A stretch of 64,000 bases of DNA from Alphaproteobacteria bacterium. GTDB taxonomy: Bacteria; Pseudomonadota; Alphaproteobacteria; SP197. Positions 3,334-51,101 of this stretch are shown one piece after another. The stretch spans positions 2,560,001 through 2,624,000 of the forward strand of contig OZ219747.1 of assembly GCA_964291265.2 (NCBI GenBank), given 5' to 3'. Within the stretch, counting starts at the first letter, position 1, and every line of letters begins with the position of its first letter. The notes under the pieces are model-generated. The model was not told where the DNA came from. It did not search any database and saw nothing but the letters and a program-made list of their open reading frames with translations. A program made the translations under genes and the position numbers.

Positions 3334-3479
3334 GACGCCTTGAGCGTCCGGGGACCCCGGAACGCTGCTAGAACTGTCGGCGGCGATTTAGAACGGCGGG
3401 ATATTGGCGGAGAACCGCTCTTTTGGGCGCTGATCGTGTGAGTGGGTGACCACGACAGGAGAACGTGCGGCATTGGACG

Positions 3480-4330
3480 AAGGTCCGCCCGGTCTTTGTT
3501 TTCTGCCTATTGTTGGATCCCATTGGTCTTGCATTGACGTTGACGATGTCGTTCCGGTCGGCGTTTTCTGGCGTTCGGCGTTTGTGGAACGTGATGTGGG
3601 AGGGGAGCTTCAGGCTTTTGCGCGTGGTTTCGTTCTGGCGTTCTCCGGCCTCGTCGTGGTTCGTCGGGCGGGACGATCTCGAGGCTGGAGAGCTGACGGT
3701 TTCTGTTGCGCTGGGCGAAGAGGCTGCGTGCGTTGCGGTTGCGGCGGCGCAGGGTGCGGCAGGCGTCGAGTGTTTTCGGGCGGATGCTGCGACCTGTGAG
3801 CCAGTCCGGCGGCGGATCGGGCGTTGCTGCGGCTCAGCGGCTGCGGCAGTCTCGTGATGTGGTGTCGTTTGGACGGCCCGGGGGTTTCCCGGGGAGGCTG
3901 AGAGGCGCGTCGGGGTGAGACGTTCTCATTCCTGGATGGTAACGCGTGACCGCGTTCAAGGGTCTTGCGAGATTACGTGTCCCTTCCGTAGCCGCGTGGC
4001 GGTTCGATGTCCTCGAGAGCCTCGATGTCGGCATCGGCGACGCTCTGCAGGCGTTCTCCGTAAGGCGTGTCACGGAGGGTTTCGGGGATGCTGTCGAGGC
4101 GGTCACGCCATTCGTCCTGCAGGGTGCGGCAGGCGTCGAGTGTTTTCGGGCGGATGCTGCGACCTGTAAGCCAGTCCGGCCAGCGGCTGCGGCAGTCTCG
4201 TGATGCGGTGTCGTTTGGACGGCCCGGGAGTTTCCCGGGGAGGCTGAGCGGCGCGTCGGGGTGAGACGTTCTCATTCCTGGATGGTAACGCGTGACCGCG
4301 TTCAAGGGTCTTGCGGGATCACGTATCCCT
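3480..4330. repeat. Degenerate tandem duplications (about 350-370 bp) of toprim-gene and small-ORF fragments
   Basis: agggtgcggcaggcgtcgagtgttttcgggcggatg at 3751 and 4121; small-ORF 3' end (..DIEPPRGYGRDT) at 3973 and 4319; 3520-3850 resembles an internally deleted copy of 4670-5230. Confidence 0.85.
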
Positions 4331-4609
4331 TCCGTAGCCGCGTGGCGGTTCGATGTCCTCGAGGGCCTCGATGTCGGCATCGGCGACGCTCTGCAGGCGT
4401 TCTCCGTAAGGCGTGTCACGGAGGCTTTCGGGGATGCTGTCGAGGTGGTCACGCCATTCGTCCTGCAGGGCGCGCAGTTCGGCCACGGCGTCGTTCCAGC
4501 GTTGCGGTCGCGAGCGCCGGTCACGGTGCTTTGGGGTGTGGACGGGAGGGATGCCGGCCTTGCGCCGTTCCCGGTATCGCCGCTGCTTTTCGGCGGGCGT
4601 GAGGGGCAT
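4319..4609 (-). CDS. Small basic hypothetical protein (MPLTPAEKQRRYRERRK..), homolog of the IS110 accessory ORF
   Basis: RBS AAGGAG; 96 aa; clearly similar to 32786..33076. Confidence 0.8.
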   Translation of the reverse strand: MPLTPAEKQRRYRERRKAGIPPVHTPKHRDRRSRPQRWNDAVAELRALQDEWRDHLDSIPESLRDTPYGERLQSVADADIEALEDIEPPRGYGRDT

Positions 4610-4635
4610 GAGTGGTCTCCTTGTGACGGACGTGG

Positions 4636-5529
4636 TCATGATCTCGCTTGTGGTTCTTTGGTCCTGGCGTTGACGACGTCGTTCCAGTCGGCGTTTTCCG
4701 GCGGTCTGCGTCTGTGGAACGAGACGTGGGAGGGGAGCTTCATCTTTTTGCGCAGGGTTTCGGCCTGTCGCTCTCCGGCCTCGTCGTGGTCCTGGGCGAG
4801 GACGATGGTCCTGACGTTGGGCAGGCTGCTTGCGGCGAGGCTGATCTGTTCGTGCTGTCTTCGCGAGGGTGCCCCGGCGGTGGAGAGGAAGGCGTGGCTG
4901 GGGGGACATTGGTCGATCTGGGCCAGGCTGAGGGCGTCGACGGCGCTTTCGGTGATGACGAGGGCCTCGAGGTCCGCGGCGGTTCCGGCGCGGACGGCGA
5001 ACAGGCTTCGGGTTCCACCGGTGGCGAAGCGTTTCGGTCCGTCGGGGGGACCGATCTCGAAGCCGGTGAGCTTTCGCTTCCTGTTGCGATGGGCGAAGAG
5101 GACGCGTCCGTTGTGGTCGCGGCGGACCAGGGGGCGGCAGGTGTCGAGGGTCTCCGGGAGGATGCCGCGCCCGGTGAGCCAGTCCGGGGCCGCATCGGGC
5201 GTTGCCGCGGCCCAGAGGCTGCGGAAGTCGCGTGGCGCGGTGTCGGGTGCTGTGAAGCGGGTGCAGATGTCGGCGAAGGCCAGTCCGCGGTTGAGCATGA
5301 AGTCGATGACGGTTCCGTTGTCTTCATCGTTCTGGGTGTTGAAGTAGACCCAGTGTCCGTTGTTGAGGCACTTCGTGACGAGCTTCGGCAGGCCGGGTGC
5401 GCACAGGACGGGGTTGGCGCGTGTCGAGGCCTGTTCGTCGCGGACGTATCCCCAGTCGGCGGCGATGCGTTCGAACGGCATGCGCTTGACGGCGTCGAAG
5501 TCGACGCGGCGGGGTTTATCGGGTTTCAC
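4636..5529 (-). CDS. DUF3991/Toprim primase-like protein
   Basis: DNGTVIDF, WLTGRGI, VITESAVDALS, STAG, LAQDHDEAG, DWNDV; GTG start overlaps the istB stop. Confidence 0.8.
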   Translation of the reverse strand: MKPDKPRRVDFDAVKRMPFERIAADWGYVRDEQASTRANPVLCAPGLPKLVTKCLNNGHWVYFNTQNDEDNGTVIDFMLNRGLAFADICTRFTAPDTAPRDFRSLWAAATPDAAPDWLTGRGILPETLDTCRPLVRRDHNGRVLFAHRNRKRKLTGFEIGPPDGPKRFATGGTRSLFAVRAGTAADLEALVITESAVDALSLAQIDQCPPSHAFLSTAGAPSRRQHEQISLAASSLPNVRTIVLAQDHDEAGERQAETLRKKMKLPSHVSFHRRRPPENADWNDVVNARTKEPQARS

Positions 5530-6217
5530 GCCTGAGCCGCCAGGAGTCGCTGTCGATGGAGATGAGGGTTGCGTCGTGCATGAGCCGGTCGACGGTGCCG
5601 GCGATGCCGGAGGCGCTGGGGAAGACGCGGTCCCACTGGGCGAAGGCGAGGCTTGTCGTGACCATGGTCGAGCGGCGCTGATAGCGCCGCGAGACGATGG
5701 CGTAGAGGATGTCGGCATGGTGGCTTTCGAGGGTCACGTAGCCGATTTCGTCGAGGATGAGCAGGCGGGGCCTGGCGAGGATCGCGAGGCGGCGGCGCAG
5801 CTCGCTGCGCGAGACGGTCTCGGCGAGTGCCTCGAGCAGTTCCGGCGCCTTCTCGAAGCGGACGGTGTGGCCGTGCAGCAGGGCCTGGTGCGCCACGTTG
5901 GCGGCGATCATGGTCTTTCCGGTGCCCTGCCCGCCGACGAGCACGGCGTTGTCCGCACGGTCGACGAAGCCGAGGCCGAGGAGCGCTTCGACATGAGCCC
6001 GGCTGATGTCGCGCGGCCATGTCCAGTCGAAGTCCGCCAGGGGCTTGAAGGCGGGCAGCCGCGCCGCGGCGCGGCGGCGCTCGTGGCTGCGGGCCCTGCG
6101 GGCCTGTTCCTCGCCGCTGACCACCTCCTCGATCCATGCGGTCCCGGCGACCTCGTCCCAGCGTTCGACGAGCCCGTGGAGGCCGAGCGCCCGGGCACGC
6201 TCCCTGAGCTCGCTCAT
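5516..6217 (-). CDS. istB: IS21 helper AAA+ ATPase IstB
   Basis: Walker A GGQGTGKT, Walker B LLILDEIGY, FDWTWP, DRLMH. Confidence 0.92.
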   Translation of the reverse strand: MSELRERARALGLHGLVERWDEVAGTAWIEEVVSGEEQARRARSHERRRAAARLPAFKPLADFDWTWPRDISRAHVEALLGLGFVDRADNAVLVGGQGTGKTMIAANVAHQALLHGHTVRFEKAPELLEALAETVSRSELRRRLAILARPRLLILDEIGYVTLESHHADILYAIVSRRYQRRSTMVTTSLAFAQWDRVFPSASGIAGTVDRLMHDATLISIDSDSWRLRRETR

Positions 6218-7707
6218 GTCTTGTTCCTGGCGCTGGCTTCGGGCCTGTCGTAGGCGTCGAGAGCGGTCCCCCGCGGCGTCGTGCCACGGCCGCCGCGGCC
6301 GTCGTCGGCGATGCTGAGGGGCGGCAGGCCCTGCTCCCGGCGGCGCTCCTCGATGATGACGCGCACGGTTTCGGGGTGGCACGAGCCGCGCTCCAGCGCC
6401 GTGGCGACAGCCCGGTCGAGAGCGTCGGCGCCGTGCGCGTTGAGAAGCGTCTCCAGCATCCGGGCGCAGGAGGCCACGTTGCGCCCGTTGGTCCCGGCGC
6501 GCGCCAGCATCTCCTCGGCCCGCGGCACGGTGCGCAGGACCCGGTCGCGGACGCTCATGGAGCGGGCCCGCCGCTTGCCCGCGGCGATCGCCCTGGCATG
6601 CTCCGGATCGGTGACGGCCTGCTTCCTGTCGTAGGAGCGTCGGTGGCGCGCGACCTCGTCGGCGCCGTCGAGGATGCGGACCTCGTCGCGGTCGGCGACC
6701 AGCGTCAGCAGGGCCTTGGAGAAGCTACCCGGAACGCTGTAGTCGTTGGTGTCGAAGCGGGCGTGGCAGGTCTTGTCGATGCGCACCGGGCGGACCTCGT
6801 GATGCGGGAAGGGGTCGACGGGAAGGACGATCAGGTGCTCCCTCTCCCGGGCGAAGGCGTCCCGCACCAGGAGACTGTCGTCGTCCGGCCAGGGCCGCTC
6901 CGCGGCGGCGCCGAAGCACCACTCCCGAACTGCGGCGTTGAGCTCGCCGAGCGGGACCGTGATGTCGCGCCCGGCGAAGAACCCGGTGCGCGCGAAGCGC
7001 ACACGGCGTTCCACGCGGCCCTTCTCCTGCGGGCTCCTGGGCCAGGCGGCGCTCGGTTCGAAGGCATAGTGGGCCGCGAGGCCGAGCAGCATCGGATGAT
7101 AGGTGACCGCCTTGCCGCGGCGCGTCACCACGGCACTCTTCAGGTTGTCGTACAGAAGCCTCCGCGGCACACCCCCGAATGCCGCGAAAGCCTCGACATG
7201 GCCTTGCAGGAAGCTGGCCATCCGCGCGTCGTGGAACAGGCTCAGGACAGTCTGGCGCGAGTAGCTGAGGGTGACGAGAAGCCCCATGAGCCTGCGCTCC
7301 GCCCGGCCGATGCGGACCTTCCCGAACTCGGCCCAGTCAACCTGCGCCTGCTCGCCCGGAAGGAAGCTCAGCCGCAGCGACGGCTCGGGCCTCTTCACCG
7401 GCCTCAGCCCAAGGCGGCGCAGGTCGTGACGGAAGTGATCCTCGCCGCCGCGGTAGCCCAGAGCCACGACCTGTCGCCAGAGCGTGCTGGCCGGAAGGTC
7501 CGGCGACGCCTCAAGACGCTCCCCGAGGAAGGCAACGAAGGGGTCGATGAGCTTGGCCCGCGGCCGCCGCTCCTGCCCCGACGCCTTGAGCGCCCGCGTC
7601 ACCGTGCCGTGGTGCACGCCGAGATGCCGGGCAATCGTCCCCACAGCCCAGCCCTCGGCCCGCGACAGCCGCACGATCGTCGCCCGCGTGTCCTCGTCGA
7701 TCGCCAT
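6214..7707 (-). CDS. istA: IS21-family transposase IstA
   Basis: N-terminal HTH, PGEQAQVDW, LLYDNLKSAV, KGRVER, FDTNDYSVP. Confidence 0.93.
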   Translation of the reverse strand: MAIDEDTRATIVRLSRAEGWAVGTIARHLGVHHGTVTRALKASGQERRPRAKLIDPFVAFLGERLEASPDLPASTLWRQVVALGYRGGEDHFRHDLRRLGLRPVKRPEPSLRLSFLPGEQAQVDWAEFGKVRIGRAERRLMGLLVTLSYSRQTVLSLFHDARMASFLQGHVEAFAAFGGVPRRLLYDNLKSAVVTRRGKAVTYHPMLLGLAAHYAFEPSAAWPRSPQEKGRVERRVRFARTGFFAGRDITVPLGELNAAVREWCFGAAAERPWPDDDSLLVRDAFAREREHLIVLPVDPFPHHEVRPVRIDKTCHARFDTNDYSVPGSFSKALLTLVADRDEVRILDGADEVARHRRSYDRKQAVTDPEHARAIAAGKRRARSMSVRDRVLRTVPRAEEMLARAGTNGRNVASCARMLETLLNAHGADALDRAVATALERGSCHPETVRVIIEERRREQGLPPLSIADDGRGGRGTTPRGTALDAYDRPEASARNKT

Positions 7708-7739
7708 GAACTCCCTCCCTTTGGTTCCTCAACGCCGCA

Positions 7740-8216
7740 TCACGGGTCCCTCAGCACCACATGCGTCACGACCCGTCCGCATCTGGCGCACCGAAGCGGC
7801 GATTCGCGCCGCTCTTGCGCCTTCACAACCGCAGGTAGGGAGGTCGGCAGCAGTCGGGAAGGGTGGTCCGTAACGATTTCTTCAGAACCGGCGTCTCCAG
7901 ACACCGCCGGAACGTCGCCAAGCAGCACCACAGCAGACGTCTGCGTGCCCATGATCTCGGCAACCATCGCCGCCCTGGCCTTCAACGCACGCGCCTCCTC
8001 CGCCTTGCGGAGCCGGTAACGCCGCTGGCGGTGACGGCCCGTCTCACGGCCCTTCAGCGTGCTCTGGTAGCGACGACGCGACGCGCGGCGCCGCTCGATC
8101 CGGGACCGCTCCCTGCACTCCTTGGAGCAATACACATGTCCCCGGTCACACGACCGGCAGAGAACAACCTGCCGCTGACACCGCCTGCAGTTGAACAGTC
8201 GTCCTGTCGTGCACAC
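7740..8216 (-). CDS. Cys-rich (Zn-finger-like) basic protein upstream of istA
   Basis: CRRC..CRSCDRGHVYCSKEC, Arg-rich helix and a C-terminal CARC; start codon uncertain. Confidence 0.65.
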   Translation of the reverse strand: MCTTGRLFNCRRCQRQVVLCRSCDRGHVYCSKECRERSRIERRRASRRRYQSTLKGRETGRHRQRRYRLRKAEEARALKARAAMVAEIMGTQTSAVVLLGDVPAVSGDAGSEEIVTDHPSRLLPTSLPAVVKAQERRESPLRCARCGRVVTHVVLRDP

Positions 8217-8591
8217 CGTCCGTCTCGAGAGCGGGGGTGGACCCGGACGCAAAATGGCTCGACAATACACGGGAGTTCGGTCCCCCGTGACCGGCTCGTC
8301 CGGGTGCTGCGCCGGGGGGCGTCACAACTCCGCCCGGCATCGCATCGCTCTTTCTCTTGATGCCGATCTAGCATCCACCCGGGGCGGCGGCAAAGACGCC
8401 GCCCCGGGACCGGACAACGCGACCCGCCCACAGGGAAGACAAACAATCCCGCGAGTGCCTCGGAACCGGAACCCTCCCGGCAACCGTCACCAAGACCGAA
8501 GCAGAGGTCGACGGAACCCGAACCGGACCAAAACGACAATAGGAAAAGACGGCGGCGCTCGGGGAGACAACCAGCCGAACACTCAAACCAC

Positions 8592-8626
8592 GACAACAGG
8601 ACGTGACAATAGGACCTGACAACAGG
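8592..8626. repeat. Three direct repeats GACAA(C/T)AGG with 13-bp period near the IS21 end
   Basis: Copies at 8592, 8605 and 8618; a further copy at 8535. Confidence 0.7.
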
Positions 8627-8887
8627 GAAGAAACACGACCCTGACAAAGCGCGGCAAATCGCCGAAATCCCGCCGTTCTATGCAGCCATCAACAAGAACA
8701 TCAAGAACCAAGCATCCGGGCCGAAAACGCTGCCGGTGTCGCCATGCGGACGGCACTGAAGCCACGGAATCCGTCCAGGACATCCCGATTCGGCCTCGAT
8801 TCGTCGGCCTCGCGAAAGATCAGATGGCCGATTCGGGCGCGATTCATCGGCTTCCCGAAAAATCAGCCGTAGCGTAGGAAAGTCCTG

Positions 8888-29395: not shown

Positions 29396-30874
29396 TCACC
29401 CCTTGTTAGGGTCTGGTTGTCCGTAGTGTTGGTTGAGGATGTCTACGGCCTTTCCGTCGAGGGCGATGTGGATGGCGACGTGAGGGTTGTAGCCGAGTGC
29501 GTCCATGGTGGTGAGGTAGCTTGAGCCGCGGCACCATGCTTTGGCGTGGGGCATGGTGCGGAAACATCCGGACACCTTGATCTTGACCTTTGTCATCCTG
29601 ATCTTCTGCTCTCCGGTATTGTTGGTGAAACTGACGTTGGGGTCCTTCATGAAGCGCAGGACGGACTTCTCGTGTTTCACGAGACGTTCATGCAGGTTGT
29701 GCGCGTCGGACTTTGCGATGCGTCCACGTTTTCCTTTCGTCCGTGGCGGGATGTCGGGCAGTTCCTTGGCGCCCTGGGTGAGGATGGTGCGGTAGCGCTT
29801 GCGCACGGCCCGGCGGTCGGCCTCGTTCAAGGTCTTGGATGCGCTCTTGTTGACCCTGCGGGAGACCTCGCGCAGCAGGCTTTTCATCAGTCGCGCCCAG
29901 CGGTAGCCGTTGGACTCGACGACGAAGGTCAGTTCGCGCAGGAGATGGCTGCCGCACAGTTGGTGGCGGCATTGATCGTAGCCCATGTAGGCAGCCCAGC
30001 AGTCGTGGATCAGGACGCCCTTGTAGCGCGGGATGATGCCGATCTCTTCGATCGCCTCCCGGCCGCGCTTGGGGTGCGGGAACTTGCACGTCAGGGTGCC
30101 GTCGGTGACGACATGGAGCCATTGGGTCTTGCCGGCGACCCGGAAGCCGGTCTCGTCGACATGCAGGGCCGGTTGTTGCAGGAGATGGGCCACGGCGGCC
30201 TCCTCCCATGATGCGAGGGCATCGTGAAAGCGCCGGACATAGCCGAGGCAGGTCGCCTCGGAGAGCTTGATGCCGGAGATCGCGTGCACGAGCGAGACGG
30301 CACGACGCAGGGACAGCATCTGGGCGATCAGCAGGTTGATGACGAGGGCCTGGATGCTGACGCCGTACTGCAGGGGGCCCGGCATGTTGTCTGGGAACCG
30401 GCCCTTGGTCCGGGCCCGGCACTTCGGGCATTCCTTGATCTCGGCTTCGACGCGGCGCTCGACGACTTCGAACACGATGTCGTAGAGGACGCGGCACTCC
30501 CGGTCGACGGGGTCGACATCGTGGAGGTCGGCGCCGCAGGCGTCGCAGGCATCGACGACGATCGTCTCCTCGATGGTGGTCGTGCGCAGGTTGTCGCCCG
30601 TCTGCTGGTTCGGTTTCGGGCCCTTGCCGTTGCTCCCGGTGCGCCTCGCGCTCTCGTCCTTGTCAGTCTGCGATGGCGGCAGACCGGAGTTCCGGCTTGT
30701 CTTACGTGTGATCTTCTCCATGAGCACGGTCAGCAACAGCTTTATCAGCATCAGCATGCCGCGGAAGAGCTCCTCGCACTCCTGGCTGACCTTGCCCTGC
30801 TTGCGGAGATCCTGGAACTGCTTCTGGAAGATGTCGGCCTCCTGGCGCACAGACGTGCCGTTCACGCTCGCCAT
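29396..30874 (-). CDS. tnpC: IS66-family transposase (element B)
   Basis: KTSRNSGLPPS, CDACG, HVDETG, IHDCW, CGSHLLREL, FTNNTGEQ. Confidence 0.92.
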   Translation of the reverse strand: MASVNGTSVRQEADIFQKQFQDLRKQGKVSQECEELFRGMLMLIKLLLTVLMEKITRKTSRNSGLPPSQTDKDESARRTGSNGKGPKPNQQTGDNLRTTTIEETIVVDACDACGADLHDVDPVDRECRVLYDIVFEVVERRVEAEIKECPKCRARTKGRFPDNMPGPLQYGVSIQALVINLLIAQMLSLRRAVSLVHAISGIKLSEATCLGYVRRFHDALASWEEAAVAHLLQQPALHVDETGFRVAGKTQWLHVVTDGTLTCKFPHPKRGREAIEEIGIIPRYKGVLIHDCWAAYMGYDQCRHQLCGSHLLRELTFVVESNGYRWARLMKSLLREVSRRVNKSASKTLNEADRRAVRKRYRTILTQGAKELPDIPPRTKGKRGRIAKSDAHNLHERLVKHEKSVLRFMKDPNVSFTNNTGEQKIRMTKVKIKVSGCFRTMPHAKAWCRGSSYLTTMDALGYNPHVAIHIALDGKAVDILNQHYGQPDPNKG

Positions 30875-31607
30875 GACGACGCCTCCACCGCCATGACTGC
30901 CGCCAGCACGGCGAGCCGCTCGCCTTCGGGCATCGTCCGGTAGCGCCGCGCCCAGCTCTCTGCGAGGCGCTTGATGCGCTGGCGGTCGATCGAGTTCCTG
31001 CCCGCACACGTATGCCAGTGCGGTCGGCCCGGTGCGAAGTTGAACCACAGCTTCTCGGTGACAACGCAGGCCTGGTTGTTGACCTGGACCTCGGCCGAGC
31101 GCCAGCCGGCGAGGTGCGTGTCGTAGAGCCGCGAGGGATAGCCGGAGATCATCACCTGGCAGGGCAGCGACGTCAGGATGTCGAGGAGCGCAACATGGTC
31201 ATCGTCCGTGCAGTCGAAGCGGTAGCGGCGCTGCGACCGGCGCGTCGACTGCACGTAAGGCGGGTCGCAGTAGACCAGCTCGCGGCCCTGGAAGGCGAAG
31301 GTCTCGAGAAAACGCAGGGCGCAGCCTTGGTGAAGCTCCACCGGATAGTCACAGCGGAAGGTGTCGATCGCCCGGCGGTTGAGGTCAATGCCGATGCTGC
31401 GCAGCGCCGGTGGCTTGCGCTTCATGATCGCGCCGCCCCCAAGGAACGCCTCGATGTACACGTCATGCGGCGGCATGGCCGCGACGATCGCCTTATATGA
31501 CCAGGTTTTGTCCCCGTGATGATGCAATCATCCACAGCGGTTGGCGGCGGGAAAATGTGGACAACCCCGACTGTGGGAGAGGGCCCGGTCTATGGTTGCA
31601 GAGAGAT

Positions 31608-32756
<1,149 letters not shown>

Positions 32757-32785
32757 CCTTGCGAGTGAGCGAAGGAGACACCCTC

Positions 32786-33076
32786 ATGGCCCTCACCCCT
32801 GCCGAGAAGCAGCGCCGTTATCGGGAACGCCGCAAGGCCGGCATCCCTGCCGTCCACCACCGAAAGCCCTGCGACCGTCGTTCCCGTGCGCAACGCTGGC
32901 GCGATGCGGTGGCCGAGCTCGGTGCATTGCAGGAGCATTATCGAGACTGTCTCGACAGTCTTCCCGACTCCCTGCGCGACACGGCTTACGGAGAACGTCT
33001 GCAGATCATCGTCGAGGCCGACATCGAGGCTCTCGAGGAGATCGAACCGCCGCGCGGCTACGGACGGGACACATGA
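32786..33076 (+). CDS. IS110 accessory small basic protein (MALTPAEKQRRYRERRK..), 96 aa
   Basis: RBS AAGGAG; homolog at 4319..4609. Confidence 0.8.
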   Translation: MALTPAEKQRRYRERRKAGIPAVHHRKPCDRRSRAQRWRDAVAELGALQEHYRDCLDSLPDSLRDTAYGERLQIIVEADIEALEEIEPPRGYGRDT

Positions 33077-33330
33077 CACCTGGAACCCCCTTGATCACGG
33101 TAACGTTACCATGCCCGGGGACGCTGGGCGGCAAGGTGGCCGCGCTCATCGGTAACGTTACCGTGATCAATGGACGGCAACTCGCTCATGCCGCCGGGAC
33201 GCATGACACCTGGAACTTCATCAAACACGGTAACGTTACCATGTCCGGGAACGCCGGCGGCAAAGCGACCGCACTCGCCGGTAACGTTACCATGATCAAT
33301 GGACAACAACCCGCCCATGCCGCCGGGACC
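33065..33330. repeat. Two ~130-bp units containing four GGTAACGTTACC palindromes
   Basis: Palindromes at 33099, 33151, 33229 and 33280. Confidence 0.92.
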
Positions 33331-33594
33331 ACAAGCTGCATGTCGCCTCGCTCGCAGGACAAGAACATCGACAAGGCGGAACCCCAGACCGCTGTGGACA
33401 ACCACAGAAAACATCACCACGGACACCCGCAAAAAACCTTGCCGGGAAACATGGATGCTGGCTCAGACCCGTCGTCGCCTTCGATCCATACCATGCCGCC
33501 ATCAATATCTCCGACGCAAACCGCCCCGATGGCCAGCATGTAGAGTGCCCCTCCTACAATGTCAAGCGCATATCTCCAGAGGATTGGAAAGGCA

Positions 33595-33648
33595 GCCAAC
33601 CGCTGTGGATGATTGCATCATCACGGGGACAAAACCTGGCCATATAAG
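33595..33648 (-). other. 54-bp copy of the IS110 left end (starting at the CT core) inside IS66-B
   Basis: rc CTtatatggccaggttttgtccccgtgatgatgcaatcatccacagcggttggc differs from 31492-31545 at one base; also present at 45427-45480. Confidence 0.9.
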
Positions 33649-35023
33649 GCCGGAACGTGGAGCTGAAGACGAAGATCGATCCGCTTCTTGTCAGTCGGAA
33701 CACGCACATCCGATCATCGGAAGCGAGCAAGTGAAGGCGGCAAGAGACAATGCCGGATTCGAACCCGTCAGGAAAAACGATCCGTCATCAGTAGGGGGTG
33801 AGTAGTTACCCCGGTTCCATGAGGTCCCTTCGACGCTCCGGGGTCATCGACCATGGCAGCCACGGGTCGAGGTCATCCGGCGGCTTGCCGCCGTTCTGCG
33901 CGCAGGCCTCAAGCCACTCATGAAGCCAGCGCCGAACATTGATGTTGTTCATGGCAAGGGTGCCGATGACCGAGTACATGATGGCGGTGAAGGCGGCGCC
34001 TTCCTCGCTGTCGGAGCCGAAGCTCAGCTTTCTCGCGGTCACCGCACCCCGGAGGGTTCTCTCGGCAAAGTTGTTGTCCATGGGCACCTGGGGATGGTCG
34101 ACAAAGACGCACAGTCCCTCGCGGTGACGGATCAGGGAACGCAAGGGCTTCGCTTCGCGTGCACCCTCGGGCAAGGCGTCGAGTTCCTCCTGAGCCTGCC
34201 TGAACAGCGCCTCGACAGCCGCACGAAGGTCCTTCTGCAGGGCATTGAACCTCGCTGACTGACGCTTGCGTGCGGGATCGTAGTGCTTCAGCCGTTGCCC
34301 ATTCAGTGTGTAGATCAGCGCGATCCTGTCGAGCCACTTGTCGCACCACTCTTCCAGCCCCTCTTGGCCTGCCGCAGCCTCGATCACATCGCGCCTGGAG
34401 TGCGCCCAGCAAAGGCAGAGGATCACCTTGCCATCAAGCTCACGCTCCAGTTTCCTGTAGACCGCGTAGCGATCGCAGACAAGGAAGACGGTGCCTTCGG
34501 TGGAGGCGAACAGCACCATGGCCACCCGGGTGCTGCGTGACGGGTCGATAAGGAAGAAGACGGAGTCGGCGCTGACCGCGGTCCACAGCCAGGCCTTCTG
34601 CGAGCGCCCCGAGGCCTTGAGGGACTGGATGCGGTGTGCCAGCATCCATGTTTCCCGGCAAGGTTTTTTGCGGGTGTCCGTGGTGATGTTTTCTGTGGTT
34701 GTCCACAGCGGTCTGGGGTTCCGCCTTGTCGATGTTCTTGTCCTGCGAGCGAGGCGACATGCAGCTTGTGGTCCCGGCGGCATGGGCGGGTTGTTGTCCA
34801 TTGATCATGGTAACGTTACCGGCGAGTGCGGTCGCTTTGCCGCCGGCGTTCCCGGACATGGTAACGTTACCGTGTTTGATGAAGTTCCAGGTGTCATGCG
34901 TCCCGGCGGCATGAGCGAGTTGCCGTCCATTGATCACGGTAACGTTACCGATGAGCGCGGCCACCTTGCCGCCCAGCGTCCCCGGGCATGGTAACGTTAC
35001 CGTGATCAAGGGGGTTCCAGGTG

Positions 35024-35314
35024 TCATGTGTCCCGTCCGTAGCCGCGCGGCGGTTCGATCTCCTCGAGAGCCTCGATGTCGGCCTCGACGATGATCTGCA
35101 GACGTTCTCCGTAAGCCGTGTCGCGCAGGGAGTCGGGAAGACTGTCGAGACAGTCTCGATAATGCTCCTGCAATGCACCGAGCTCGGCCACCGCATCGCG
35201 CCAGCGTTGCGCACGGGAACGACGGTCGCAGGGCTTTCGGTGGTGGACGGCAGGGATGCCGGCCTTGCGGCGTTCCCGATAACGGCGCTGCTTCTCGGCA
35301 GGGGTGAGGGCCAT
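35024..35314 (-). CDS. IS110 accessory small protein, copy 2
   Basis: Same translation as 32786..33076. Confidence 0.8.
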   Translation of the reverse strand: MALTPAEKQRRYRERRKAGIPAVHHRKPCDRRSRAQRWRDAVAELGALQEHYRDCLDSLPDSLRDTAYGERLQIIVEADIEALEEIEPPRGYGRDT

Positions 35315-35343
35315 GAGGGTGTCTCCTTCGCTCACTCGCAAGG

Positions 35344-36309
<966 letters not shown>

Positions 36310-36958
36310 TTATGATGATTCGGTTCAAACCCAGGCATCCATTCAGGACGCAAGGGACGCCAAGGGAGGTTGGCCGACCAAGCTGGCACACGGCTCCGTA
36401 AGGCCAAGGCGAAAACGGTCCGACCAACCTCCGCGGAGATCGTTTGATCCCCGCACCCCGCTCCCCTGTGCTTGATCGCGCAGGGGAGCGGAATCTCTCT
36501 GCAACCATAGACCGGGCCCTCTCCCACAGTCGGGGTTGTCCACATTTTCCCGCCGCCAACCGCTGTGGATGATTGCATCATCACGGGGACAAAACCTGGT
36601 CATATAAGGCGAACTGGCGGAAGGTAGGGGGTGAAAGTCCCCTGAAACGAAGGAGTAACCAAACCACGTTTCTCCGCGAGCCGTGCGTCGGTTCCCGCGA
36701 GGGGGCAGGCGAAGCGTCGGTAGCGGTACGGATGGGCAGGGCTAATGAGCACCGAAAAGTCCGTTGTTCGGGGTGCCGAGGCTTTCGCATCGGTCGAAGG
36801 CAACATCGCAGGCATCGATTTGGTGAGATGTCGGCGAGCCCCGCGGTGTCGGAGAACCCATGCACGTCCGCACGCCTTCTGTTGGGACCCTGGGAGGTCT
36901 TCGAACTATCCCGCCTGTCGTGGCGGGACCGTGTAGGGAAAGGAGAAAGCCGAAGCCT

Positions 36959-43193: not shown

Positions 43194-44672
43194 TCACCCC
43201 TTGTTAGGGTCTGGTTGTCCGTAGTGTTGGTTGAGGATGTCTACGGCCTTTCCGTCGAGGGCGATGTGGATGGCGACGTGAGGGTTGTAGCCGAGTGCGT
43301 CCATGGTGGTGAGGTAGCTTGAGCCGCGGCACCATGCTTTGGCGTGGGGCATGGTGCGGAAACATCCGGACACCTTGATCTTGACCTTTGTCATCCTGAT
43401 CTTCTGCTCTCCGGTATTGTTGGTGAAACTGACGTTGGGGTCCTTCATGAAGCGCAGGACGGACTTCTCGTGTTTCACGAGACGTTCATGCAGGTTGTGC
43501 GCGTCGGACTTTGCGATGCGTCCACGTTTTCCTTTCGTCCGTGGCGGGATGTCGGGCAGTTCCTTGGCGCCCTGGGTGAGGATGGTGCGGTAGCGCTTGC
43601 GCACGGCCCGGCGGTCGGCCTCGTTCAAGGTCTTGGATGCGCTCTTGTTGACCCTGCGGGAGACCTCGCGCAGCAGGCTTTTCATCAGTCGCGCCCAGCG
43701 GTAGCCGTTGGACTCGACGACGAAGGTCAGTTCGCGCAGGAGATGGCTGCCGCACAGTTGGTGGCGGCATTGATCGTAGCCCATGTAGGCAGCCCAGCAG
43801 TCGTGGATCAGGACGCCCTTGTAGCGCGGGATGATGCCGATCTCTTCGATCGCCTCCCGGCCGCGCTTGGGGTGCGGGAACTTGCACGTCAGGGTGCCGT
43901 CGGTGACGACATGGAGCCATTGGGTCTTGCCGGCGACCCGGAAGCCGGTCTCGTCGACATGCAGGGCCGGTTGTTGCAGGAGATGGGCCACGGCGGCCTC
44001 CTCCCATGATGCGAGGGCATCGTGAAAGCGCCGGACATAGCCGAGGCAGGTCGCCTCGGAGAGCTTGATGCCGGAGATCGCGTGCACGAGCGAGACGGCA
44101 CGACGCAGGGACAGCATCTGGGCGATCAGCAGGTTGATGACGAGGGCCTGGATGCTGACGCCGTACTGCAGGGGGCCCGGCATGTTGTCTGGGAACCGGC
44201 CCTTGGTCCGGGCCCGGCACTTCGGGCATTCCTTGATCTCGGCTTCGACGCGGCGCTCGACGACTTCGAACACGATGTCGTAGAGGACGCGGCACTCCCG
44301 GTCGACGGGGTCGACATCGTGGAGGTCGGCGCCGCAGGCGTCGCAGGCATCGACGACGATCGTCTCCTCGATGGTGGTCGTGCGCAGGTTGTCGCCCGTC
44401 TGCTGGTTCGGTTTCGGGCCCTTGCCGTTGCTCCCGGTGCGCCTCGCGCTCTCGTCCTTGTCAGTCTGCGATGGCGGCAGACCGGAGTTCCGGCTTGTCT
44501 TACGTGTGATCTTCTCCATGAGCACGGTCAGCAACAGCTTTATCAGCATCAGCATGCCGCGGAAGAGCTCCTCGCACTCCTGGCTGACCTTGCCCTGCTT
44601 GCGGAGATCCTGGAACTGCTTCTGGAAGATGTCGGCCTCCTGGCGCACAGACGTGCCGTTCACGCTCGCCAT
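43194..44672 (-). CDS. tnpC: IS66-family transposase (element B)
   Basis: Same translation as 29396..30874. Confidence 0.92.
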   Translation of the reverse strand: MASVNGTSVRQEADIFQKQFQDLRKQGKVSQECEELFRGMLMLIKLLLTVLMEKITRKTSRNSGLPPSQTDKDESARRTGSNGKGPKPNQQTGDNLRTTTIEETIVVDACDACGADLHDVDPVDRECRVLYDIVFEVVERRVEAEIKECPKCRARTKGRFPDNMPGPLQYGVSIQALVINLLIAQMLSLRRAVSLVHAISGIKLSEATCLGYVRRFHDALASWEEAAVAHLLQQPALHVDETGFRVAGKTQWLHVVTDGTLTCKFPHPKRGREAIEEIGIIPRYKGVLIHDCWAAYMGYDQCRHQLCGSHLLRELTFVVESNGYRWARLMKSLLREVSRRVNKSASKTLNEADRRAVRKRYRTILTQGAKELPDIPPRTKGKRGRIAKSDAHNLHERLVKHEKSVLRFMKDPNVSFTNNTGEQKIRMTKVKIKVSGCFRTMPHAKAWCRGSSYLTTMDALGYNPHVAIHIALDGKAVDILNQHYGQPDPNKG

Positions 44673-45337
44673 GACGACGCCTCCACCGCCATGACTGCCG
44701 CCAGCACGGCGAGCCGCTCGCCTTCGGGCATCGTCCGGTAGCGCCGCGCCCAGCTCTCTGCGAGGCGCTTGATGCGCTGGCGGTCGATCGAGTTCCTGCC
44801 CGCACACGTATGCCAGTGCGGTCGGCCCGGTGCGAAGTTGAACCACAGCTTCTCGGTGACAACGCAGGCCTGGTTGTTGACCTGGACCTCGGCCGAGCGC
44901 CAGCCGGCGAGGTGCGTGTCGTAGAGCCGCGAGGGATAGCCGGAGATCATCACCTGGCAGGGCAGCGACGTCAGGATGTCGAGGAGCGCAACATGGTCAT
45001 CGTCCGTGCAGTCGAAGCGGTAGCGGCGCTGCGACCGGCGCGTCGACTGCACGTAAGGCGGGTCGCAGTAGACCAGCTCGCGGCCCTGGAAGGCGAAGGT
45101 CTCGAGAAAACGCAGGGCGCAGCCTTGGTGAAGCTCCACCGGATAGTCACAGCGGAAGGTGTCGATCGCCCGGCGGTTGAGGTCAATGCCGATGCTGCGC
45201 AGCGCCGGTGGCTTGCGCTTCATGATCGCGCCGCCCCCAAGGAACGCCTCGATGTACACGTCATGCGGCGGCATGGCCGCGACGATCGCCTGGCTCAGAC
45301 CCGTCGTCGCCTTCGATCCATACCATGCCGCCATCAA
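44660..45337 (-). CDS. Short Dam-like (D12 class) N6-adenine DNA methyltransferase
   Basis: YGSK, YIEAFLGGGA, GIDLN, YCDPPY, ISGY, EKLWFNF. Confidence 0.88.
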   Translation of the reverse strand: MMAAWYGSKATTGLSQAIVAAMPPHDVYIEAFLGGGAIMKRKPPALRSIGIDLNRRAIDTFRCDYPVELHQGCALRFLETFAFQGRELVYCDPPYVQSTRRSQRRYRFDCTDDDHVALLDILTSLPCQVMISGYPSRLYDTHLAGWRSAEVQVNNQACVVTEKLWFNFAPGRPHWHTCAGRNSIDRQRIKRLAESWARRYRTMPEGERLAVLAAVMAVEASSWRA

Positions 45338-48285: not shown

Positions 48286-48518
48286 GGCCGATCTCCTTGA
48301 AGGGCACGAAACGGTGATGATAGCTTCCCGCATACCTCACGGGAACGGAAAACCGCCATGGAATCCAATCCTCTTCGCTGCCGCCGGCCGGAAGGCAACA
48401 CCCCCCAACTCACCGATTGGGGATGCAATTCGGAATACGGTGTCCTCACCGATGTCCTGCTCGGACCGGCCGACAACTTTCACTGGCTCCCCACGAGCTC
48501 CATCTCCAGGGCTACGCT

Positions 48519-51101
48519 CTGCCCATTAGTCACAAAAGGTGTCATTACAAGTGAACTGAGAGGGGGTCTTCGCCACTGCCGCCGCCTGCCAGAAGCACGC
48601 CCGGCGATCGTGCGGACCGAATGCTTGACAAGACCAGCGCACCCTGTCAGGCTGCCCAACGTCATGGACTACACTCCCCTGCCGATCCGGTCAACATTGG
48701 ACCAACCCGAGGCCCTGGCCCGGCTGCAGCCGATCCTGGATGGCTCGTCGAGCCGCTGGGCCGCAACCCGCGCCACCTGTGCCGCCTTTGCGCTGCGCGA
48801 CGGGCGCGGACATCTGCGCCTGCAGAGCTGCCTGTCGGCGCTTGAAGCCCTGGACCGGGCCGGGCGCATCCGGCTGCCGCCGGCGCGTCCGGGGCCGGCG
48901 CACCGGGCGCCGCGCACGGATCCCCGGACGCGGCCGGCGCCGCCGTTGCCGGAGGTCCCGGACCAGGCGGGGCAGATCCCCGACCTTGCGGTGTCGCCGG
49001 TGACCGACCGCGCCGGCAAGCACACGTGGGCGGCGATGATGGCCCGGGAGCATCCTCTCGGTCCGGTGCGGGCGGCGGGATCGCAGATCCGCTACGTCCT
49101 GACCTCGGGCGAGGGGGTTCTCGGCGGCTTCCTGTGTGCGGCGCCGACCCGTGTGCAGGCGGCGCGGGATCGCTGGATCGGCTGGACCCCGGCGCAGTGT
49201 GCGGCGGGGCGGCACCGCATCGTCGGCCTGGCGCGCTTCCTGATCCGGCCGGCTCTTGGGCGCTGCCGCAACCTCGCGTCGCGGGCGCTCGGCCTGTGCC
49301 TGCGCCGGGTGGTTGGGGACTACGAGGCCCTCTACGGTCTGCGTCCGGTACTCATCGAAACGTATGTCGGTCCCGAGCACGACGGCACCAGCTGCCGGGC
49401 GAGTGGATGGATCCGGGTCGGGCAGACGGCCGGTCGCGACCGTCATCGCCGGCCGGTGGCGGTCAAGCAGGTCTGGCTACGCCCGCTCAGCACCGACTGG
49501 CGTTGGCAGCTGGGGGTCCGGGTGGAGCCGTTGACGCCGTGGGCGGGTCTGGACAGCACCCGGTGGGCGGAGCAGGAACTGGCCGGAGCGGACTTCGGCG
49601 ATGTCCGGCTGAGCCGGCGTCTTGTACAATCGGCTGCTCTGCTGGCGCAGACGCCTTCGAAGACCTTCGTGACCGCAGCCCGGGGAGATGCAGCGATGGT
49701 GACCGGCTATTATCGTCTGATTGAGCACCCCGATAGCGCCGCCGTCTCGGCACAGGCGATCCTCGCTCCGCATCGCAAGCGGACCCGTCAGCGGATCCAG
49801 GGACAGGACACGGTGCTGCTGATCCAGGACGGCTCCGACATCAACCTGGCGACGCACCAGGCCTGCGAGGGTCTCGGCGTGATCTCCCGCAACCGGGGAT
49901 CCAAGGGCACTCTCGGTCTGCATCTGCACACGACCCTCGCCGTGGCGGCGGACGGCATCCCGTTGGGCGTGCCACGGATCGAGTTCGATGCGCCGCCGCT
50001 CGAGGGCGCCGCCGACGACGACCGTGACACCAAGACCCAGCGCTGGGTCCGGGGACTGGAAGACAGCGGGGCCCTGATCGACGGATTGCACGAGGTTCGG
50101 GCCGTGGCCGTCATGGATCGCGAAGGCGATGCCTTCGAGGTCCTGGAGGCCTGGCGGCGCCTGGAAGGGCGGATCCACATCCTCGTGCGGGCCCGTCATG
50201 ACCGCAGTCTCGGCAAGGGACGATTGAAGCTGTTCGAACGCATGCGCCGACAGCCGGTCCGGGAGGCCTGGACGGTATCGGTGCCGCGGTTGTCGGTACG
50301 GCGGGCGACGGGGTCGCAGTCGGCCTTCATCGGACGGGCCGCGCGCACCGCTCCCTGCGCCCTGCGCTGGAAGAGCCTCGAGATACCGGTTCCCGAAGGA
50401 CGCGCCGAACCGGGCGCGCGGGCGATCCGCCTGTCACTGGTCCATGTCCAGGAAACCGCCGATCCCGAGGACGGAGCGAAGCCGCTGGAATGGCTGCTCC
50501 TGACCTCGCTGCCGGTGAGCGATGCCTGCCAGGCCCGGGAAGTGGTCGGCTTCTACGAGCGGCGCTGGCGCATCGAGGAGTTCTTCCGCATCCTCAAGTC
50601 CGGCTGCGACGTGGAGACGGGAGCCCATCGCACGCGGGAACGCGTCGAACGGGCCGTCGCCCTGCGCGCCGTCATCGCCTGGAGACTGTCGGTCCTGGCC
50701 CTGCTCGGGCGCGAGACGCCGGGGCTCGAGCCCGGGGTGCTGTTCTCCGAAGCCGAGCTGGCGGTGATCGCGGACTTTGCCCGGCAGCGCCGCCTGGAGG
50801 CGCCCGACAACCTCGGCGCCGCCATCACCCTCCTGGCCCGCATGGGCGGGTACCTCCAGCGCCGGCACGACGCACCGCCCGGCGCCCACGTGGTCTGGGA
50901 AGGATACAGCCACCTCGCGCTCGGCGCCGACATCGTCGAGCGGGCCCGGCAGGTCGGCCACCAGAGCGAGGTGAAGCGCTGGATCTCGGGCTGAGGGCTG
51001 AGGCAAGGGCGCCTCGACCCACACCTTTCGCTTACCTCACGGCACCCTCAATGTGTGGCAAAAGTGCACTTGTAATGACAGGGTTTGTGACTAATGGGCA
51101 G
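48519..51101 (+). mobile_element. IS4-family element (2583 bp)
   Basis: 18-bp IR CTGCCCATTAGTCACAAA; TSD GCTACGCT. Confidence 0.93.
48664..50994 (+). CDS. DUF4338/DruA-like domain fused to an IS4 (Tn5-like) transposase
   Basis: HPLG..QIRY..RDRWIGW..RFLI..NLAS..ETYV; then D.RL.RRL, IQDGS, DREGD, YERRWRIEEF. Confidence 0.9.
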   Translation: MDYTPLPIRSTLDQPEALARLQPILDGSSSRWAATRATCAAFALRDGRGHLRLQSCLSALEALDRAGRIRLPPARPGPAHRAPRTDPRTRPAPPLPEVPDQAGQIPDLAVSPVTDRAGKHTWAAMMAREHPLGPVRAAGSQIRYVLTSGEGVLGGFLCAAPTRVQAARDRWIGWTPAQCAAGRHRIVGLARFLIRPALGRCRNLASRALGLCLRRVVGDYEALYGLRPVLIETYVGPEHDGTSCRASGWIRVGQTAGRDRHRRPVAVKQVWLRPLSTDWRWQLGVRVEPLTPWAGLDSTRWAEQELAGADFGDVRLSRRLVQSAALLAQTPSKTFVTAARGDAAMVTGYYRLIEHPDSAAVSAQAILAPHRKRTRQRIQGQDTVLLIQDGSDINLATHQACEGLGVISRNRGSKGTLGLHLHTTLAVAADGIPLGVPRIEFDAPPLEGAADDDRDTKTQRWVRGLEDSGALIDGLHEVRAVAVMDREGDAFEVLEAWRRLEGRIHILVRARHDRSLGKGRLKLFERMRRQPVREAWTVSVPRLSVRRATGSQSAFIGRAARTAPCALRWKSLEIPVPEGRAEPGARAIRLSLVHVQETADPEDGAKPLEWLLLTSLPVSDACQAREVVGFYERRWRIEEFFRILKSGCDVETGAHRTRERVERAVALRAVIAWRLSVLALLGRETPGLEPGVLFSEAELAVIADFARQRRLEAPDNLGAAITLLARMGGYLQRRHDAPPGAHVVWEGYSHLALGADIVERARQVGHQSEVKRWISG

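Follow-up and report, generated by a model that had tools for sequence, protein, structure and literature searches.

A 96-residue passenger gene and its palindrome form a portable unit shared by unrelated insertion sequence families

The window analysed here, a 64,000 bp stretch of an alphaproteobacterial genome, contains two related types of a small passenger gene, one within an IS110 element and one within an IS21-family element, and each is followed by palindromic sites. The gene and its palindrome are supported as one portable unit that is not specific to IS110. The gene and the site travel together, the protein is under selection, the unit is located inside mobile elements and the two domains of the protein are separable. 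The preferred reading, given a probability of roughly 0.45, is that the N-terminal basic helix of the protein would bind the GTNAC-GTNAC palindrome, that the bound protein would repress its own promoter where the site lies upstream, and that the acidic C-terminal domain would act on the host, aiding a newly arrived element. Insertion sequences are usually treated as minimal. That this unit has been swapped between no fewer than six types of element, and plasmids as well, suggests that incoming DNA faces a common pressure which has gone unrecognised.

Carrier elements and passenger gene in the window

The first copy of the IS110 element (31492–33459, forward strand) lies between CT cores at 31492–31493 and 33458–33459. 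It interrupts a D12-type DNA methyltransferase gene close to codon 14, and an intact methyltransferase copy at 45284 provides the matching empty site. Comparison of filled and empty sites identifies the CT core as a short sequence common to donor and target. The genome contains four near-identical copies of the element with differing flanks. The second copy in the window (34635–36612, reverse strand) carries the same 96-residue gene and four palindromes (34809–35001) and sits in the 5′ end of a group II intron (RF02005 at 36634–36858; TIGR04416). The left end of the element is predicted to encode a bridge RNA (31646–31810, forward strand) whose fold has the two-loop shape. Its predicted target guides, TTTTCGCCT (31685–31693) and GTGTGCCAG (31709–31717), and predicted donor guides, ATGGATGC (31758–31765) and CATAAG (31786–31791), match target and donor respectively, and in seven relative loci the target guides vary as the flanks do. 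The predicted target is the 5′ end of the multicopy group II intron, where three of the four copies are found and for which 27 exact empty targets are left in the genome. The term "group II intron" is absent from the text of PMC11208160 and "intron" from that of PMC11187229. The DEDD recombinase (315 residues, 31809–32756, forward strand) contains PF01548 and PF02371 and scores 202.6 bits against NF033542 (cut-off 140). When the ends are joined and read by eye, TTGCCG-17 nt-TATGAC appears as a predicted circle-junction promoter; no sigma-70 consensus promoter was found within the integrated element.

These features resemble IS621 and other IS110 elements as described in the available text of PMC11208160, which share the DEDD recombinase, the CT core and an RNA at the left end whose loops face target and donor, and putatively a promoter at the circle junction. 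The element is set apart from them by an additional gene under selection, by the palindromes within its long right end and by the placement of three of its four copies in group II intron 5′ ends. Judged from its sequence, it is a new and otherwise standard IS110 member, and the carriers of the 96-residue gene are otherwise ordinary. Cargo-bearing IS110 elements are already in print (bioRxiv 10.64898/2026.08.14.744561); the cargo described in the accessible part of that source is large, plasmid-derived and resistance-rich, whereas the unit here is a fixed 0.5-kb unit common to other IS families. The ends of the element also contain inverted motifs, TTATCCACA / TGTGGACAA (31527–31566 and 33393–33401; also at loci L091, L101 and L102). 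These DnaA-box-like motifs are kept in the left end across the IS110 clade, with one further motif in the right end.

As noted in the original prediction, a further gene (32786–33076, forward strand) follows the recombinase. It begins 29 nt past the recombinase stop codon, with AAGGAG ahead of the ATG. The encoded 96-residue protein has the N-terminus MALTPAEKQRRYRERRK and is composed of a basic helix (residues 5–17), a linker and an acidic helical C-terminal domain ending in PRGYGRDT. The net charge is +9 over residues 1–36 and −8 over the remainder. Profile searches and structure prediction had been proposed for this protein; the former returned no Pfam or NCBIfam name, and the latter gave a model (pLDDT 85.5) with the helix at residues 5–17, the linker, a helical domain and no strand. 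The PDB sequence search and the ESM Atlas provided nothing usable. Foldseek identified no PDB match at E ≤ 0.001 and none among viral models, where the best rows were uncharacterised phage proteins. PLSDB plasmids and INPHARED phages likewise contained no match, and no description of the family or the palindrome was found in the open literature searched. The N-terminus presumably resembles a MazE-like antitoxin (PF11455), a candidate that was rejected since PF11455 is not among the 25 families listed of 28 (E ≤ 1) and no toxin neighbour recurs.

The family consists of 1415 homolog clusters with the invariant residues present, and of 2127 representatives at 50% clustering. The dN/dS of the gene is approximately 0.20 (mean dN 0.079, dS 0.397; 28 pairs) and that of the recombinase is 0.29 (mean dN 0.070, dS 0.241; 21 pairs), with one pair in each set drawn from the same locus. 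The 96-residue gene is thus under purifying selection, stronger than that on the adjoining recombinase. Neutral hitch-hiking DNA or a spurious ORF might be suggested by the broken or lost gene copies at some loci (L099, L102, L109) and by the rarity of the family, which occurs in 3 of 401 genomes of the class when no more than 12 candidates are scored for each genome. This explanation is largely refuted by the selection signal, is opposed also by the invariant residues of the 1415 clusters, and is regarded as very improbable. In one genome (G305; L353–L373) the gene is present in a dozen degenerate copies, and almost none of these has a palindrome.

The 96-residue gene is followed, 22 nt past its stop codon, by the first of four exact copies of GGTAACGTTACC, the predicted binding site (33099–33110). 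The second copy (33151–33162) lies 52 bp after the first, a spacing of about five helical turns, and the two together form a perfect 20-bp inverted repeat. The third and fourth (33229–33240 and 33280–33291) belong to a duplicated unit. The original prediction had counted four such palindromes and placed their start about 22 bp after the stop codon. Relatives of this IS110 element have two sites 52 bp apart, and the four found here arose as a tandem duplication of the two-site unit; the four copies are not independent observations. The window contains eight matches to GGTAACGTTACC at up to two mismatches against a shuffle mean of 0.74, because the second, inverted copy of the element at 34635–36612 holds the other four. 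The 23 exact matches in the genome are distributed as 16 in the four full copies and seven in two degenerate cassette relics. The palindrome-bearing stretch in this IS110 clade is non-coding; a protein encoded across the palindromes was ruled out, as pN equals pS and length changes shift the frame. A host regulon for the general pattern GTNACGTNAC was likewise ruled out, since 23 of 53 genome sites are of the cassette form and the rest display no excess of A/T-centred forms.

The IS21-family element (5.3 kb, 3375–8694, reverse strand) has TG...CA ends, is present in about 30 near-identical full-length copies and encodes a Cys-rich ORF, istA, istB, a Toprim gene and the passenger gene. Its assignment follows from IstA, IstB, the TG...CA inverted ends and the multicopy state. 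Profile matches comprise NF033546 above the cut-off, an IstB model at 191 bits, just under the cut-off of 200, and Toprim_2. The passenger homolog (4319–4609, reverse strand) is 78% identical to the IS110-borne gene, and tblastn identified 37 full-length matches of this IS21-borne type in the genome. It is followed 21 nt past its stop codon by GGTCACGCGTTACC (4284–4297), which contains two GTNAC half-sites 7 bp apart and is duplicated at 3938–3951, so that the homolog and the near-palindrome at a like distance that were originally noted are both confirmed. The genome contains 72 sites of this type. The Toprim/DUF3991 primase-like gene lies at 4636–5535, and the Cys-rich ORF, at 7740–8270, contains an RHRQRRYR motif and has no Pfam, PHROG or NCBIfam match.

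Co-travel and exchange between element families

The genome loci of the family (80, collapsed to 42 distinct loci) contain the palindrome GTNACGTNAC within 200 bp of the gene in 39 of the 42, against 0.02 expected from the remainder of the loci. This pattern was chosen after viewing the genome loci and was applied unchanged to the metagenome loci, of which 65 of 80 (not deduplicated) have a palindrome near the gene, 64 of them upstream. Viral-contig loci with full-length homologs have one in five of eight cases. The co-occurrence sought by surveying homolog neighbourhoods was therefore found. Among the 42 genome loci the site is upstream in 26, downstream in 16 and on both sides in three. Palindromes on both sides of the gene are seen at L019, L021, L037, L098 and L102, and at L019 and L021 they lie within short direct repeats; such bracketing is a possible route by which a site relocates to the downstream side.

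The neighbours of the homologs include two IS110 clades, IS21, large serine recombinases, IS66, IS3 and ISNCY, and comparison of multi-copy elements places the gene inside IS110, IS21, IS3, IS66 and ISNCY elements. Plasmid neighbours are rep, par and relaxase genes, and small plasmids also carry the gene. A tree of 41 rows, representing 36 of the 42 loci with element labels taken from the adjacent gene (six without a clear label were excluded), rejects a single clade of IS21-borne genes (p-AU 2e-77) and a single clade of IS110-borne genes (p-AU 2e-6), which supports exchange between element families. The two gene types of the window fall within one supported clade. Co-occurrence and tree together uphold the proposed portable cassette exchanged between unrelated families.

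The same spread bears on the suggestion that the cassette controls excision or directionality of the IS110 recombinase. Within this IS110 clade the gene is a fixed component (26 of 30 loci, four of the 26 being the genome's own) and the sites are within the right end, as might be expected of a directionality factor. The gene is found, however, on plasmids and beside enzymes of the DDE, serine and DEDD classes, and the palindromes lie at least 166 bp from the recombination core. According to the available text of PMC13626964, IS621 needs nothing beyond its recombinase and bridge RNA for excision, and its directionality is intrinsic to these two. This role is very unlikely because of the spread over several unrelated enzyme classes, and that part of the original prediction is not upheld.

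A role of the protein-palindrome unit in expression control is plausible. The 84 distinct upstream sites are mostly 10–40 nt ahead of a start codon, many of them preceded by a TTG hexamer, and at L111 a one-mismatch site occupies the 17-bp spacer of TGGACA...TACAAT, which together indicate operator geometry. Where the site is upstream, the protein probably represses its own gene. The cassette may alternatively be no more than a repressor damping genes of the element that carries it, with a C-terminal domain that serves only for oligomerisation. Such a repressor would agree with plasmid L033, in which four sites per 4.9-kb unit each lie 16–30 nt ahead of a start codon of a different gene, and with the sites ahead of a serine recombinase (L022, L031) and between tnpB and tnpC (L057). 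Sites distant from the gene are rare, with 13 in 293 kb of genome loci and three in 200 kb of metagenome loci, so that transposase promoters are mostly without the palindrome; the stand-alone phage domain with its conserved tail, described below, is also left unexplained, and a plain repressor is considered rather unlikely.

The basic helix and the C-terminal domain

The 96-residue protein consists of two separable parts, the N-terminal helix and the C-terminal domain. The AE(K/R)QRRYR helix is also present in otherwise unrelated phage proteins beside clusters of GTNAC. A helix-only scan identified 93 viral loci (67 distinct, 23 protein groups), and the reversed-peptide control pattern identified none. 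Around the helix without the C-terminal domain there are 5.3 GTNAC per 331 bp against 0.95 (67 distinct phage loci), and three or more are found in 48 of 67 helix loci compared to 27 of 440 distant windows. Every reading frame contains such sites, and CGTNACG is the favoured form (157 of 355); Val-Thr coding as the only cause of the clusters was ruled out, with 139 of 355 sites in that frame. Among twenty helix proteins tested, 11 had matches to families of replication initiators or primosomal proteins, and one to a terminase small subunit. In viral contigs (L238–L350) the AE(R/K)QRRYRER form of the helix is seen in initiators, terminase small subunits and small unknown proteins, each adjoined by CGTNACG clusters. 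A variant helix, TERVRKHRE (seven loci), pairs with GAAAC (33 against 5.6 expected) and the AERMR helix (nine loci) retains GTAAC, a comparison of small numbers and related proteins. The clusters and the pairings give strong indirect support to DNA binding by the helix and make it quite likely that the helix reads GTNAC. A helix of 13 residues with this predicted preference would be a very small DNA-reading motif and is directly testable.

The phage initiators with in-gene iterons (PHROG 2509, 9474, 345 and 4880; Phage_rep_org_N, DUF1376) have the same helix beside GTNAC arrays. They differ from the present case, where the helix is fused to another domain and the sites are non-coding and number one to four per element. 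GTnAC is also bound by Borrelia EbfC, which prefers two sites and reads them with the helical arms of a dimer, as stated in the accessible part of PMC2665219. Since ybaB is encoded in this genome, the palindromes could have a host reader, the nucleoid protein EbfC/YbaB, in place of the 96-residue protein. The sites go with the helix, though, and not with the C-terminal domain or the host, and they switch to GAAAC with the variant helix; a host reader is therefore improbable. The host protein has a beta dimer core, whereas the 96-residue protein has no PF02575 match.

The C-terminal domain is found on its own in phages. Twenty-eight phage homologs are composed of this domain only, and a palindrome is nearby in just one of them. 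In PHROGs it corresponds only to phrog_4068 (20 of 24 rows), whose function is unannotated, and its model is a helical bundle with no match to a characterised fold. The stand-alone family accounts for 7609 of 8000 candidates, a count that coiled-coil composition may inflate. The best 120 matches are all without the helix and end in a PxG(F/Y/W)GR tail, a conservation to which the choice of search words contributed in part. The phage genes lie in runs of small same-strand genes with mostly unannotated neighbours, among them DUF932 (three loci), DUF2786 and one sub-threshold ArdC-N match. DUF932, DUF2786 and ArdC-N are associated with anti-defence, an association for which the literature searched gave no confirmation, and as neighbours they are weak leads. 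No anti-defence protein was linked to the family by sequence or by fold, and no acr match or neighbour was found.

Possible roles of the unit in its carriers

The occurrence of the C-terminal domain alone in phages and under its own operator in insertion sequences is most simply explained by a host-acting domain, as in AcrIIA15, an autorepressor fused to an effector (available text of PMC10901769). A host-directed C-terminal domain is thus put forward tentatively, at slightly under even odds, and counter-defence is the best guess for its activity, though a doubtful one. AcrIIA15 and Aca14, according to the parts of PMC10901769 and PMC13551039 at hand, are small proteins of mobile elements, each acting at an inverted repeat to repress the promoter of its own gene. 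The 96-residue protein differs in having no detected similarity to them and in being carried by insertion sequences. An inverted repeat of the Aca type is present in the promoter of most homologs; in the present copy the sites are downstream. No HTH or RHH domain is found among the 25 Pfam families listed for 51 members of the family or in the model. The passenger would work like a self-regulated passenger effector, yet lacks the HTH or RHH domain that marks Aca membership.

Autorepression does not fit this IS110 element and its clade directly, given that the sites are downstream. The 96-residue gene would here be read from the recombinase transcript starting at the predicted circle-junction promoter, and the protein on the downstream sites may act as a feedback sink or a right-end roadblock and not as a classical promoter repressor.

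A further explanation is that the protein is a cis-acting accessory of transposition, in which the helix would label the DNA of its own element or the excised circle and the C-terminal tail would recruit the recombinase or host replication and repair proteins. In four clusters (16 full-length proteins; proteins P0352, P0354, P0361 and P0365) the complete module is joined to an intact IS110 recombinase by a linker, of which there are three lengths (91, 97 and 108 residues), with no Met at the usual start of the module, and this in-frame fusion in one clade keeps a recombination-accessory role open. The 52-bp site spacing and the sharing of the helix with phage initiators would suit such a role as well. 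Relatives 56% identical to the fused recombinase are without module or site in both of two loci, however, phages encode the C-terminal domain by itself with neither helix nor site, and most homologs have a single site in promoter position; an accessory of this kind is judged unlikely. The fusion fits an element-directed role equally well and counts against the host-directed reading. A family-independent version, in which the helix tags element DNA and the tail docks a host protein to protect, replicate or integrate the excised circle, is a minority possibility; if true, it would be an accessory factor of transposition independent of element family. The fusion also bears on bridge-editing design if it alters efficiency or cis preference.

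The fusion linkers contain two or three S/L-R-D motifs. These could be encoded by the palindrome, the fusions being known here from protein sequences alone. Most fusions to IstB or other transposases were left uncounted, as they look like read-throughs that keep the internal Met.

Several other mobile elements are present in the window. An IS66-type transposase with a D12-class adenine methyltransferase gene occupies 29396–31487, 33466–34634 and 43194–45337 and occurs in about 15 copies. Within this multicopy unit, 33592–33650 is an inverted 59-bp near-copy of the IS110 left end. A DruA-like domain fused to a Tn5/IS4-type transposase is encoded at 48358–50994 and also at 4313–6703 of locus L044.
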